Notes under the pieces: model-generated
What the model saw: the letters and a program-made list of their open reading frames with translations, nothing else
The model's database searches: none
What the model was told of the DNA's origin: nothing
Source: a virus
Strand: one strand, 5' to 3'
DNA: 51,129 nt
Virus record (IMG/VR): IMGVR_UViG_3300033412_000644
Part shown: positions 46,326 through 48,395 of the stretch, piece by piece
Position numbering within the stretch: the stretch's first letter is position 1
How the letters are laid out: every line of letters begins with the position of its first letter
Translations under genes and position numbers: made by a program

Positions 46326-46337
46326 CTGAGTTCCTCC

Positions 46338-46383
46338 AACGGGCTAAGCCCCGCGATCCGGAGACCGCGGGGCGAAGCTGACG
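46338..46383 (-). repeat. copy A of duplicated intergenic stem-loop module
   Basis: GGGCTAAGCCCCGCG-loop-GACCGCGGGGCGAAGCT. 8-bp GC stem at 46348-46355 and 46366-46373. The loop differs from copy B while the stem and flanks are identical. Confidence 0.55.
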
Positions 46384-46391
46384 TGGGTACG

Positions 46392-48314
46392 TTACTGCTG
46401 CGGCGGTACCTTGGCCTTCTTGCCGTTGGTCGCGCCTTCCTCCGTCGCCGGAGGTGACACCTTGCCGTTGATCAAGGTAGCCAACAGGACGTTGACCAGC
46501 GAGTTGGAGTCGCCTCCACCTGCATTGCCGCCGGCGACGATGCCGGGGACGAGCGGGTGCTTGCCGTTGGCCAGTGCCTTGGCGACCTCGATCGTGGCGT
46601 AGTTGGTCTGGTCGACTGCCGACGCCTTCTTGCGAATGACTTCAGCCTCGGCCTCGCCGACCGCGGTGATCTTCTTGCCTTCGGCATCGCCGGTCAGCTG
46701 AATGACCTTGGCATCGGCCTCAGCCTGAACCGTCTTCGACTCGGCGTTGGCCTTCGCTTGGACGACCAGCATCTTGGCGCCTGCCTCGGCGTTGATGACC
46801 ATCGCTCGGGCATCGCCTTCTGCCTTCTTCACTGCCGTCTGGGCATCGAAGTCAGCGATGGCTACCTTGCGTTCAGCGTCGACGACCTTGGCCTGCGTGG
46901 CCGCAGTTGCCTTCGCCTGCTCGAGGTCCTTGCGCTTGTCCTCGGCCATGCGCTGGGTGTCGAAGGTCGCCTGCTCCTCTTGGGCGATCTTCCTGTCCGT
47001 CAGCGTCTTCATCAGCTCCTTGGGAGGTGTGATGTCACCGATCAGCGTGTCGACGGCGACGACGTTGTACTCATTGAGCGCCGCGGAGATCGCCTTCTTG
47101 GCGTCGTCCTGGCGATTCTTGCGGTCACCGAGGAACTTGATGACATCGGAACCCTGCGCCGCGTTGCGGAAGTAGTTGCCGATGGTGGGCTCCAACACCT
47201 GCGTCACCAGGTTCTCGACCTTGCCGAAGCGGGCGATGACCTTGGGGGCATCGGTGCGGGGCACGTGGATGATCTGGCTGACGTCGAGGTTGAAGGTGAA
47301 GCCGTCGTTGGAACGGACGGTGATGGTCGACAGGTTCTTGTCGAGGTTGTGCGCTTCGGTCTTGCCGGTCGCCCAGTTGAGGACGATGTTGGCCGTCGGC
47401 ACGCACTCCACCTTGTGGGTGTACGGGTTGATCGGATAACGACCCGGATCGAGCGGCTCGGCCCAGACGCCCTTTTCGCCCTTGCCGACGAGGTTGCCGT
47501 GCTTGAAGGCATCGCCCGTCACGTCGACGCCGGGCTTGCCGACGAAGGCGATGACGCAGCCGGCGTGAGCCAGCGGCACTGACGTCATGTCGACTTCCTC
47601 GACCGTGGCGAACATCGGATTGATGTAGTAGCGACCGGCGAGGATGACCTGCTCCTGTAGGCCCTTGCGGCCACCGCCGTCGAGGAACGTCTGCGGGTTC
47701 TGGTACATGTTGTGGTCCGGGATCTCGGGACCGGCGATGTCGCCTGTGTCGAGGGGACGACCCTCTTTGGTGGTGACGACGCCGACCTTGTTGTCCTTGA
47801 TCTCGATGACCTCTGTCAGCTTGACGTCGAACAGGCCGGTGTTGATCCTGTAGGTGCCGGGCGGGACGATGGCGAGCTGCGGACCACGTTCACCGCCGTT
47901 CGTCAAGAATGCACGGGCATTCTGAAACATGTCGCACTCGACTGTCTTGCCGAGGATGCGCCCGCTGGTCACCGACTTGCCGTCGCGGCTGGTGATGACA
48001 CCGAGCTGACCACGCGGGATGGTGACGAACTTCTGCGTCTCGATGACGTACTGCCAGGGCCAGAGGCCGAAGTGGACGCCAGGTGCCAGAGTGTCGGCCT
48101 GGACACCTGCCTCCCCGTTCAGCGCGATGATGGCGCCGTCCGGGAGTGCCTTGTTGGTGCCGAACAGGACGAACTTCTTGGTGACGATGCCGATGCTGTC
48201 CTCCGGGATGACGATCATGCCGAAGAGTCGCAGCACCATGCGGTGCAGGGCGATCGCCAGCAGCAGCGCGACGCCACCGATGATGAGGCCCAAGTGAGAC
48301 ATTACGAATTCCAT
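46392..48314 (-). CDS. flotillin-like SPFH/band-7 membrane protein (YqiK-like)
   Basis: N-terminal TM helix, SPFH domain, long Ala/Glu/Lys-rich coiled coil (flotillin tail), Gly/Ala-rich end. The first 16 codons of ORF 46392..48362 are a translation of hairpin B, so the start is set at MEFVMSHL. Confidence 0.8.
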   Translation of the reverse strand: MEFVMSHLGLIIGGVALLLAIALHRMVLRLFGMIVIPEDSIGIVTKKFVLFGTNKALPDGAIIALNGEAGVQADTLAPGVHFGLWPWQYVIETQKFVTIPRGQLGVITSRDGKSVTSGRILGKTVECDMFQNARAFLTNGGERGPQLAIVPPGTYRINTGLFDVKLTEVIEIKDNKVGVVTTKEGRPLDTGDIAGPEIPDHNMYQNPQTFLDGGGRKGLQEQVILAGRYYINPMFATVEEVDMTSVPLAHAGCVIAFVGKPGVDVTGDAFKHGNLVGKGEKGVWAEPLDPGRYPINPYTHKVECVPTANIVLNWATGKTEAHNLDKNLSTITVRSNDGFTFNLDVSQIIHVPRTDAPKVIARFGKVENLVTQVLEPTIGNYFRNAAQGSDVIKFLGDRKNRQDDAKKAISAALNEYNVVAVDTLIGDITPPKELMKTLTDRKIAQEEQATFDTQRMAEDKRKDLEQAKATAATQAKVVDAERKVAIADFDAQTAVKKAEGDARAMVINAEAGAKMLVVQAKANAESKTVQAEADAKVIQLTGDAEGKKITAVGEAEAEVIRKKASAVDQTNYATIEVAKALANGKHPLVPGIVAGGNAGGGDSNSLVNVLLATLINGKVSPPATEEGATNGKKAKVPPQQ

Positions 48315-48339
48315 GATGTTTTGGGTTCCTTTCCCTTCT

Positions 48340-48385
48340 AATGGGCTAAGCCCCGCGGCCACTGAAGACCGCGGGGCGAAGCTAC
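48340..48385 (-). repeat. copy B of duplicated intergenic stem-loop module
   Basis: 9-bp GC stem at 48350-48358 and 48369-48377. Same flanks as copy A, followed by an AAGGAA-type Shine-Dalgarno for the flotillin gene. Confidence 0.55.
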
Positions 48386-48395
48386 CGGTTGTTGC

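Follow-up and report, generated by a model that had tools for sequence, protein, structure and literature searches.

Two closely similar hairpin cassettes flank the gene of an SPFH protein in the window, the whole stretch of 51,129 nucleotides analysed here, which is part of a soil jumbo phage genome of about 358 kb. With moderate confidence we interpret the hairpins as terminator-derived intercistronic stem–loops, which would serve as leaky attenuators and as barriers to 3' exonucleases within one transcript of the MVP-like gene, the SPFH gene, and the small genes.

The upstream gene encodes a protein of 898 aa (48396..51092, minus strand; GC3 0.89, the highest in the window) matching Pfam MVP_shoulder (3.6e-30) and the major vault protein of the PDB (1e-21). 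The middle gene (46392..48314, minus strand; GC3 0.86), with a cassette on each side, encodes a flotillin-like SPFH/Band_7 protein of 640 aa (7.7e-28 against Band_7/SPFH), or of 636 aa if it starts at the second ATG, which is how public contigs annotate it. The labels MVP and flotillin given to these genes in an earlier note on this DNA hold on account of these matches. Directly downstream of the second cassette there is a hydrophobic ORF of 56 aa (46155..46325, minus strand), which overlaps an ORF of 96 aa (45868–46158). The three small ORFs following this cassette (56, 96, and 63 aa) had no match in the related MVP–SPFH loci. No tRNAs were found, and a megablast search of INPHARED with the 8-kb region gave no match. 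The isocitrate lyase of the phage was uninformative with respect to the host, being 63–68% identical to proteins of many phyla, among them Gemmatimonadota, Bacilli, Chloroflexota, and Acidobacteriota.

In the following, J1 denotes the junction between the MVP-like and the SPFH gene and J2 the junction between the SPFH gene and the next gene. Copy A of the cassette (48331..48383, minus strand) is situated at J1 and copy B (46331..46379, minus strand) at J2. The duplicated intergenic hairpin module described in the earlier note is real, the shared module measuring about 53 nt by local alignment. It was placed there between a stop codon and the Shine-Dalgarno (SD) sequence of the next gene; copy A begins 12 nt past the TGA of the MVP-like gene (48398..48396), copy B begins 12 nt past the TAA of the SPFH gene (46394..46392), and in both cases an SD and an ATG follow. 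In minus-strand order copy A consists of AGCTTC (48383..48378), GCCCCGCGG (48377..48369), tcttcagtgg (48368..48359), CCGCGGGGC (48358..48350), and TTAGCCC (48349..48343), after which come ATTAGAAGGGAAAGGAAC and the start codon of the SPFH gene (ATG, 48314..48312). Likewise, copy B consists of AGCTTC (46379..46374), GCCCCGCG (46373..46366), gtctccggat (46365..46356), CGCGGGGC (46355..46348), and TTAGCCC (46347..46341), and here GTTGGAGGAACTCAG leads to an ATG (46325..46323). The core inverted repeats are therefore GCCCCGCGG/CCGCGGGGC (48350..48377, minus strand) and GCCCCGCG/CGCGGGGC (46348..46373, minus strand), each with a 10-nt spacer. The 3' part of copy A comprises the tail TTAGCCCATTAGA and enters a purine-rich SD region; that of copy B comprises the tail TTAGCCCGTTGGA and the SD GGAGGAA. 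From the core 3' arm to the next ATG there are 35 nt in copy A and 22 nt in copy B. A small GGG/CCC hairpin carrying the SD in its loop (GGGAAAGGAACCC, 48323..48335, minus strand) is located 8 nt before the SPFH ATG.

The core arms form perfect Watson–Crick stems of 9 bp in copy A and 8 bp in copy B. The earlier claim of perfect stems with 10-nt loops was right as to the complementarity of the stems but not as to the loops, as both helices reach 11 bp via wobble-compatible pairs and the real loops comprise 6 and 4 nt. Two variable positions extend the helix, G-C and U·G in copy A, G·U and U-A in copy B, and a closing C-G pair is common to both copies. The helix of copy A is made up of nine Watson–Crick pairs, U·G, and C-G with the loop UUCAGU, that of copy B of eight Watson–Crick pairs, G·U, U-A, and C-G with the UNCG-type tetraloop UCCG. 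Both copies have an outer GCU/AGC helix across a 2x2 internal loop. The window helices consequently consist of 11 bp, the internal loop, and 3 bp, with 14–17 pairs in total as against 14–20 in relatives. No other 44-nt local fold on either strand of the window is as stable as copies A and B (−30.8 and −29.4 kcal/mol). The antisense folds reach −27.6 (A) and −25.0 kcal/mol (B), and shuffling gave z-scores of −3.5 and −3.1 in sense but only −1.2 in antisense orientation. Another strong hairpin, at 39305–39348, falls in a predicted ORF and was disregarded.

With up to two mismatches allowed, each of the 15-mers AGCTTCGCCCCGCGG and CGCGGGGCTTAGCCC still has exactly two matches in the window (0.23 and 0.15, respectively, expected by chance), and a search of the window with the arms, the tail, and the SAS-like motif as queries and up to three mismatches gave no further copies beyond these two. 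The earlier note had asked whether additional copies exist elsewhere in the genome; with about 58 kb of the 358-kb phage scanned (the 51-kb window and 7 kb of the ENA contig L100), there are still just two. The exact cassette pattern had 0 matches in the IMG/VR viral contigs, the JGI metagenome contigs, and the GTDB genomes, collections that do not contain this phage. A REP family of the host was rejected because of this absence from the public collections, and the REP-like nature suggested before is not borne out by two copies in 58 kb. Searching the whole window against Rfam gave no match at gathering thresholds; at E <= 1 the region 46200–48500 gave only a chance snoRNA match, placed elsewhere. 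L100 and the JGI contig L101 contain both copies as well, and a third assembly of the same phage (L102) contains copy B, which is identical in all three. In view of this recurrence an assembly artefact can be dismissed.

The two copies share 18 + 15 identical bases, that is all 33 of 33 stem and flank positions, around a variable apex that differs by two indels and three substitutions. J1 and J2 of the window are 89% identical (score 31.5). When aligned with the J1 of the window, the J1 sequences of the relatives scored 12–17.5 (excluding L003) and their J2 sequences 3–8; when aligned with the J2 of the window, the J2 sequences of the relatives scored 2–7.5 and were no closer than their J1 sequences (3–12.5). 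Copy B is situated at a synteny breakpoint with the relatives, which lack the ORFs that follow J2. Judging from these alignments, the J2 cassette is a paralogous copy of the J1 cassette, comprising the hairpin, the tail, and the ribosome-binding region, and the near-identity of the copies is best read as history rather than mechanism. We assumed recent copying combined with a fast-evolving apex; selection on structure only would leave the 33 identical positions unexplained. A 1-nt loop indel between strains that are 98% identical weakly supports a fast-evolving apex. Two more specific scenarios were rejected. A tandem duplication extending into coding sequence, which would make p56 a remainder of the N-terminus of SPFH, is not supported, as the similarity of A and B is not significant in the coding regions (an equally high score was obtained in 100 of 500 codon shuffles). 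Nor does the cassette appear to travel with the downstream small genes, as a p96 homologue in another phage (L103–L106) has neither a hairpin nor a cassette upstream.

Constant stems with divergent loops had previously been taken as a sign of selected structure, in the manner of covariation between the two copies. This argument does not stand, because identical arms reflect recent copying or a constraint at the sequence level. The only true covariation is that seen in other phages and at the two apical pairs that are wobble-compatible. We compared the seven distinct phages of the clade having MVP and SPFH genes together (the window, L001, L002, L003, L004, L020, and L021). All seven have their most stable hairpins at J1 and J2, with −25 to −37 kcal/mol. 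The stem sequences in the six relatives differ from those of the window, with compensatory changes and G·U pairs, and in these phages the hairpins of J1 and J2 are unlike each other and unlike across phages. At J1 at least five different arm sequences occur in the clade. Across the clade it is the position of the hairpin that is kept at both junctions, not its sequence.

For the J2 of the relatives a consensus helix of 13 pairs was obtained, in which five pairs are changed on both sides and 89.7% of the cells are paired. This level of pairing was reached by 1 of 500 shuffles, and slid registers gave 34.6–61.5%. The arms at J1 are non-homologous, for which reason a sequence alignment with MAFFT/RNAalifold missed the helix and the J1 hairpins had to be compared by per-sequence folds. 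Thirteen of the 14 hairpins of the clade, each with 1–4 G·U pairs, are more stable as sense RNA by 2.5–9 kcal/mol, which argues for selection of the structure at the RNA level. The selected RNA structure proposed earlier is therefore upheld on different grounds, namely the junction hairpins kept with different stems, the compensatory changes, and the G·U pairs specific to the sense strand. The element is dispensable, since a group of SPFH phages with a GC content of 62% (L009, L010, L017, and L018) has a hairpin at neither junction.

The nearest known class consists of the rho-independent terminators and their U-tract-less 'I-shaped' look-alikes in GC-rich genomes. With the former the hairpins share the GC-rich stem 12 nt past the stop codon, the stability (about −30 kcal/mol, see above), and the sense polarity; moreover, canonical versions exist at the orthologous positions of AT-rich relatives. 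However, the U-rich tract of 7–9 nt that abuts the hairpin of an intrinsic terminator is missing. The tails UUAGCCCA and UUAGCCCG, with UUAGCCC after the stem, have a T-tail score of 1.77 each, whereas canonical cases reach at least 3.6, among them the terminator of the window at 19397–19440 (3.61) and the J2 of L013 (5.71). In agreement with this, a consensus terminator scan reported neither hairpin site. The statements that no U-tract follows either hairpin and that the hairpins are not classic terminators are thus confirmed. A further difference is that the next SD and ATG lie within 22–35 nt of the core stem, so that complete termination would silence the next genes.

A canonical hairpin with a U-tract follows the SPFH gene in AT-rich relatives (e.g., L013, L005, L064, L056, and L078), and within the clade L003 has a canonical hairpin with a U-tract at J1. 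Among 71 distinct loci, 23–45% have a hairpin of −25 kcal/mol or below within 95 nt of the SPFH stop codon, compared with 0–3% of the coding controls. The median T-tail score drops with GC content from 3.65 (GC < 45%) to 1.30 (GC >= 62%), with the window at 1.77. It has been reported that U-tract-less hairpins do not terminate even mycobacterial RNA polymerase in vitro, and the authors of that study proposed that such hairpins are stability elements or define 3' ends (PMC3993855).

No σ70-like promoter was found in the region 40000–51129 by a scan for the σ70 consensus, which may miss a phage-specific promoter overlapping the hairpin or the tail. In view of this result and of the 35 and 22 nt that separate the core stems from the next ATG, the hairpins must lie inside a polycistronic unit, co-transcription being deduced from the sequence. 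In all members of the clade the end of the fold including the outer pairs is 23–31 nt away from the ATG of the SPFH gene. The MVP-like gene, by contrast with J1 and J2, is preceded by a gap of about 90 nt with a perfect TTGACA. Along the unit GC3 declines from 0.89 via 0.86, 0.84, and 0.81 to 0.79 or less, and the MVP-like and SPFH genes both appear to be highly expressed. As the hairpins lie within such a unit and no U-tract follows them, the attenuation or stability role suggested in the earlier note remains the most reasonable one.

We considered several alternatives. The hairpins could be efficient terminators, possibly for a phage-encoded or otherwise unusual RNA polymerase, after which each gene is restarted from a phage-specific promoter overlapping the tail, so that the cassette would combine terminator, promoter, and ribosome-binding site. 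The position 12 nt past each stop codon, the canonical terminators at the same place in AT-rich relatives, and the extent of the copied unit (hairpin, tail, and SD) would fit, as would the J1 tail CTTTCGCACATCTGAAGAAAGA, which is more conserved among the relatives than the stems, as expected of a sequence-specific signal. A phage-encoded polymerase could terminate at hairpins without a U-tract; bacterial multisubunit polymerases, however, need it (PMC3993855), and the T-tail score of 1.77 is low next to the 3.61 of the window's canonical terminator. In addition, no σ70-like promoter was detected, just 35 and 22 nt are left between the core 3' arm and the ATG, and the relatives' tail motif was rejected as a repeated promoter motif since it occurs once per locus, at J1 only. 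We therefore regard this explanation as unlikely. Processing by an endonuclease, with the hairpins as RNase III sites like those of T7 or with an RNase E site next to them, so as to yield separately stable mRNAs, is quite unlikely. Like the T7 RNase III sites they are intercistronic phage hairpins with an internal loop in a presumed polycistronic RNA, here between genes for abundant proteins, and the succession of helix, 2x2 internal loop, and outer helix loosely recalls the T7 R sites; some relatives have 18–20 pairs, and a single-stranded tail containing A and U (AUUAGAA) follows the hairpin. Yet RNase III of the E. coli type prefers roughly two helical turns (about 20 bp or more), and the window helices, with 14–17 pairs, fall short of this preference. 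The stems are also almost pure G-C, unlike those of T7, and no Rfam match was obtained. With a helix as short as 11 + 3 bp, classical RNase III sites appear unlikely.

Two further alternatives place the function in the sequence itself. The cassette might be bound by a factor of the phage or its host that coordinates downstream translation, comparable to the ESAS of Cluster K mycobacteriophages, in which an inverted repeat with a variable spacer of 4–13 nt directly precedes a conserved motif, after which comes the start codon (PMC3203893). Our cassettes resemble this arrangement with arms of 8–9 bp, spacers of 10 nt, and the tail and SD next to them, and with stems and flanks identical at 33 of 33 positions beside a variable apex; moreover, GGGAAAGGAACCC has the base of the SAS consensus at 11 of its 13 positions. 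However, the SAS is a 13-bp sequence (GGGATAGGAGCCC) with up to two deviations that occurs 11–19 times per genome, 3–8 bp upstream of start codons, and the ESAS arms measure 17 bp (PMC3203893). The window contains two hairpins and a single SAS-like 13-mer with two deviations (48323–48335, 8 nt before the ATG), and matches with up to three mismatches are no commoner than in shuffles (7 found, 11.6 expected). In the six relatives the junction hairpins are unlike each other and unlike across phages, so no sequence-specific recognition is conserved, and we give this reading little credence. Even less probable, in our opinion, is that the repeats function as DNA, serving as joints for recombination or as mobile regulatory cassettes similar to the PeSLs of T4-type phages, by which the flanked SPFH gene could be excised or replaced. 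Direct repeats 2004 bp apart around one gene and the location of copy B exactly at the synteny breakpoint would suit such joints, and PeSLs also are compact, repeated intergenic modules at plastic gene boundaries that join a stem–loop (G·U allowed) with SD and ATG and drive modular shuffling (PMC2839356). However, PeSLs carry a strong σ70-like early promoter and number about 50 per genome (PMC2839356), whereas the cassettes have no σ70-like promoter (0 in 40000–51129) and were seen in two copies. Furthermore, the identity blocks span just 18 and 15 bp, the p96 homologue (L103–L106) has no cassette upstream, and the G·U asymmetry of the sense strand favours RNA over DNA. Taken together, a sequence-specific regulatory or mobile unit made of the fixed-arm hairpin, the tail TTAGCCCRTTRGA, and the SD, be it of the ESAS or the PeSL type, is improbable. 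If it were true, more copies would be expected at other module boundaries in the remaining 300 kb or so of the genome, and the 33 conserved positions beside the fast-changing apex would reflect recognition and not recent copying.

According to the explanation that we prefer, terminator-derived stem–loops within one transcript, the MVP-like gene, the SPFH gene, and the small ORFs would be transcribed in this order into a single RNA. The hairpins would descend from the rho-independent terminators that end these genes in related phages, and the U-tract would have eroded to UUAGCCC in the GC-rich lineage, so that RNA polymerase probably reads through most of the time. With about −30 kcal/mol the hairpins would then act mainly on the RNA, on the one hand as weak attenuators. 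On the other hand, by barring 3'→5' exonucleases, they would allow the MVP segment alone, and then MVP and SPFH together, to outlast the downstream segments. The outcome would be a graded expression with MVP >= SPFH > small ORFs. Read-through, RNA 3' ends, half-lives, the exonuclease barrier, and the expression gradient are what we infer from the arrangement.

Among the closest known systems are also mRNA-stabilizing stem–loops such as the E. coli REP hairpins in malEFG and those of the Rhodobacter puf operon, a comparison that rests on established knowledge and on the discussion in PMC3993855. As there, stable hairpins stand between the cistrons of an apparent operon, the window hairpins follow those genes whose products are expected to be the most abundant, and a block of 3'→5' exonucleases leading to differential expression may, by analogy, be proposed. 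The cassettes are imperfect, intergenic, transcribed palindromes like REP, but are not a dispersed repeat family, with two copies and none in public collections. REP families have many dispersed copies (tens to hundreds) with a common consensus. On the features tested, membership of the cassettes in the REP, PeSL, or SAS/ESAS classes fails.

As a kind of element the hairpins are ordinary; more unusual are the genes, which in soil jumbo phages bring together a homologue of the major vault protein and a flotillin-like SPFH protein, and the hairpins suggest that the ratio of the two products is under control. One phage gene module here offers a comparative case of intrinsic terminators grading into U-tract-less hairpins with rising GC content. 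This bears on the long-running question of the role of 'I-shaped' hairpins, and the operon would be a handy test of leaky termination versus exonuclease protection.

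Both junctions flanking the SPFH gene carry a hairpin cassette on the minus strand. Copy A (J1), at the junction from the MVP-like to the SPFH gene, extends from 48383 down to ~48326 and reads AGCTTC-GCCCCGCGG-tcttcagtgg-CCGCGGGGC-TTAGCCC-ATTAGAAGGGAAAGGAAC. Copy B (J2), at the junction from the SPFH gene to the next gene, extends from 46379 down to ~46330 (AGCTTC-GCCCCGCG-gtctccggat-CGCGGGGC-TTAGCCC-GTTGGAGGAAC). The copies start exactly 12 nt past the TGA (48398..48396) of an 898-aa ORF and the TAA (46394..46392) of a 640-aa ORF, respectively, and both end in the Shine–Dalgarno (SD) region of the next ORF (ATG at 48314 for A and 46325 for B). 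Folding yielded in both copies an 11-bp helix with nine or eight Watson–Crick pairs, an outer GCU/AGC helix beyond a 2x2 internal loop, and an apical loop of 6 nt (UUCAGU, copy A) or 4 nt (UCCG, copy B). The earlier note had described the two-copy cassette correctly overall, but its stem length and loop size have to be replaced by these values. When a 44-nt frame was slid along both strands of the entire window, J1 and J2 were the two most stable local folds (-30.8 and -29.4 kcal/mol). A very stable inverted repeat at 39305-39348 (GGCGCGGGGGC...GCCCCCGCGCC, -29 kcal/mol, 18-nt spacer) lies within a predicted 116-aa ORF and not between genes.

The window is a segment of a large phage with densely packed genes and many small ORFs. 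Its auxiliary genes on the plus strand (776-2128, 15034-16167, 17721-18617, 20987-21913, 24820-26319, and 27159-28784) encode isocitrate lyase, a UDP-glucose pyrophosphorylase-like (UDPGP-like) enzyme, Fpg DNA glycosylase, ADP-ribosylglycohydrolase, an AAA ATPase, and GroEL. The isocitrate lyase shares 63-68% identity with proteins of many phyla and therefore gives no host signal. A 357,674-bp contig of an ENA metagenome and JGI contigs encode SPFH proteins identical to that of the window. Both cassettes are present in these independent assemblies, whose DNA is 97-98% identical to the window, and copy B also in a third assembly (L102); the cassettes of these assemblies differ solely in the J1 loop, by a 1-nt indel.

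The MVP-like and SPFH genes (46392-51092, minus strand) have the highest GC3 values of the window (0.89 and 0.86). By its matches to Pfam MVP_shoulder (3.6e-30) and to MVP in the PDB (1e-21, over residues 511-832), the 898-aa upstream ORF is a genuine major-vault-protein homologue. The 640-aa middle ORF is a flotillin-like, membrane-anchored SPFH/Band_7 protein. The pair is conserved among jumbo phages from soil (358- and 369-kb contigs), namely in the window and at the related loci L001-L004, L016, and L020-L024. Full-text literature searches turned up no account of a phage-encoded MVP homologue.

With the SPFH protein as query, ~95 related loci were recovered from IMG/VR and JGI metagenomes, among them six other distinct phages with MVP-like and SPFH genes: L001, L002, L003 (identical to L022-24), L004, L020, and L021. 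In all six, the same two junctions hold the most stable hairpins that the locus forms on its sense strand (-25 to -37 kcal/mol). The arm sequences vary from phage to phage, with at least five unrelated ones at J1 alone, and inside each relative J1 is unrelated to J2. The J2 hairpins of the relatives share a 13-pair consensus helix (RNAalifold) with both partners changed in five pairs and pairing in 89.7% of the cells; only 1/500 column shuffles matched these values, and shifted registers paired only 34.6-61.5% of the cells. This covariation among six sequences backs a selected RNA helix, in a supportive rather than overwhelming manner. In 13 of the 14 junction hairpins the sense RNA is 2.5-9 kcal/mol more stable than the antisense RNA, and each of the 14 contains one to four G·U pairs, which argues for selection on the transcript and not on a DNA palindrome. 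The selected RNA structure proposed in the earlier note is thus upheld by the hairpins at both junctions in relatives, the compensatory pairs of J2, and the sense-strand stability. A GC-rich clade (L009, L010, L017, and L018) has a hairpin at neither junction; the element is therefore common but dispensable.

Other sequence features were seen at these junctions. The leader CTTTCGCACATCTGAAGAAAGA, 22 nt after the J1 hairpin, is nearly invariant in L001, L002, L004, L020, and L021 and occurs once per locus, while the neighbouring stems vary freely; its constancy points to a sequence-specific role, for instance in initiating translation or in processing. Some distant relatives have short tandem repeats at the junctions flanking the SPFH gene: GACAGGTCA units ~40-130 nt past the SPFH stop in L052, GTGCGTGG units past the stop in L040, and GGTACT-like units upstream of the start in L045.

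Near-identical hairpins at both junctions were found in the window's phage only, among the phages compared. The proposal that the fixed stem and divergent loop of A and B reflect covariation is not supported, as the identical arms point to copying or concerted evolution. The sole structural signal between the copies is two wobble-compatible changes in the apical helix (G-C/U·G versus G·U/U-A). Copies A and B share a single ~53-nt block in local alignment, and the likeness does not extend into the coding sequences. The window's own sequences, WIN J1 and WIN J2, align with a score of 31.5 and 89% identity; WIN J1 scores 12-17.5 against the J1 of relatives (L003 excluded) and 3-8 against their J2. 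Moreover, the WIN J1 tail GCCCATTAGAAGGGAAAGG is recognisably akin to the conserved J1 tail of the relatives, GCACATCTGAAGAAAGAGAG. By the same scores WIN J2 has no special affinity to the J2 of relatives. Synteny with the relatives breaks exactly downstream of J2, and none of the related loci has the ORFs 3' of it (56, 96, and 63 aa). Taken together, these data are best accounted for if J2 arose as a paralogous duplicate of the J1 cassette, installed when the region 3' of the SPFH gene was remodelled. At the apex the copies differ by two indels and three substitutions, with 33 stem and flank positions unchanged; we assume relaxed constraint and loop-prone mutation, which do not fully explain this pattern. 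A homologue of the 96-aa ORF (45868-46158, minus strand), with 60% identity, follows a phosphoribosyltransferase-like gene in a phage context unrelated to this one (L103-L106), so this small ORF seems to be mobile.

J1 and J2 share the hairpin of canonical intrinsic terminators but not the U-tract: as the earlier note had stated, no U-tract follows, both tails having a T-tail score of 1.77 versus 3.61 at the canonical rho-independent terminator at 19397-19440 (plus strand; GGGGCGG..CCGCCC, then TTTGTTGT). The latter follows a 249-aa high-GC3 gene (18630-19379) and appears to be the sole clear-cut one of its kind in the 51 kb; scanning the window for the terminator consensus gave no enrichment over shuffles. 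Distant AT-rich relatives have textbook terminators 3' of the SPFH gene (e.g. L013, AAAGGACTCGAAGAAATTCGGGTCCTTTTTTATTTTTTT; L005, L064, L056, and L078), some also 5' of it (e.g. L013 and L019), and the J1 tail of L003 is TTTCATCTTTT. Among 71 distinct loci, 23-45% by GC class have a hairpin of <= -25 kcal/mol at <=95 nt from the SPFH stop, compared with 0-3% in their coding controls, and the median d'Aubenton-Carafa T-tail score drops over the GC classes as GC rises (3.65, 2.57, 1.87, and 1.30). Mycobacterial RNA polymerase, tolerant of poor U-tracts, did not terminate in vitro at hairpins without a U-tract, and the role proposed for 3' structures of this type was to stabilise RNA or to set its ends once exonucleases have trimmed it (PMC3993855). 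From these comparisons we conclude that the junction hairpins are probably terminator-derived intercistronic stem–loops.

A REP-like element, as had been considered, is rejected because dispersal fails: there are just two copies in the ~58 kb scanned and zero matches in three public collections. Fifteen-mers spanning the left and right halves each occur exactly twice in the window with <=2 mismatches allowed (0.23 and 0.15 matches expected by chance), and the scan for further copies over ~58 kb of the ~358-kb genome returned the two known ones only. Rfam families gave no match for the cassettes. Compared with T7-type RNase III sites, the folded helix is shorter than usual. The architecture resembles the (extended) start-associated sequences (SAS/ESAS) of Cluster K, but the class-defining multi-copy 13-mer is missing. 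GGGAAAGGAACCC at 48323-48335 (minus strand), 8 nt 5' of the SPFH ATG, could fold into a GGG/CCC mini-hairpin whose loop holds the SD; it agrees with the mycobacteriophage consensus GGGATAGGAGCCC at 11/13 positions, and since it occurs singly the match is probably coincidental. Promoter-early stem-loops (PeSL) share stem–loop, SD, ATG, and a plastic boundary with the cassettes, but the cassettes lack the σ70 promoter and the high copy number by which that class is defined.

The J1 fold including outer pairs ends 23-31 nt before the SPFH start in 7/7 clade members; the core 3' arms of the window's J1 and J2 end 35 nt before the SPFH start and 22 nt before the next ATG, respectively. A consensus scan of 40000-51129 revealed no σ70-like promoter. 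Past the window end (51129), a hairpin-free intergenic gap of ~90 nt lies 5' of the MVP-like gene and downstream of an HNH endonuclease gene (7122-7212 of the ENA contig L100); its perfect TTGACA, ~50 nt 5' of the MVP ATG, makes it a candidate for the promoter of the MVP–SPFH unit. A GTCACACAACGGCG motif upstream of the MVP-like gene is conserved between L002 and L004. The simplest reading would be a single transcription unit that begins 5' of the MVP-like gene and includes both hairpins. Were J1 or J2 to terminate transcription with full efficiency, the genes 3' of it would be silent; most likely, the hairpins would act as weak attenuators and as barriers to 3'->5' exonucleases, and attenuation and exonuclease blocking together could produce graded expression along the unit. 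GC3 falls in gene order (0.89, 0.86, 0.84, 0.81, then <= 0.79), in line with this proposed gradient but no proof of it.

Overall, the two cassettes are a real feature under selection, and as mRNA hairpins derived from terminators and placed between cistrons they belong to an ordinary kind. Two points are mildly interesting: a cassette was duplicated inside the genome where a mosaic boundary lies, and in the series of relatives compared the U-tract vanishes with rising GC.
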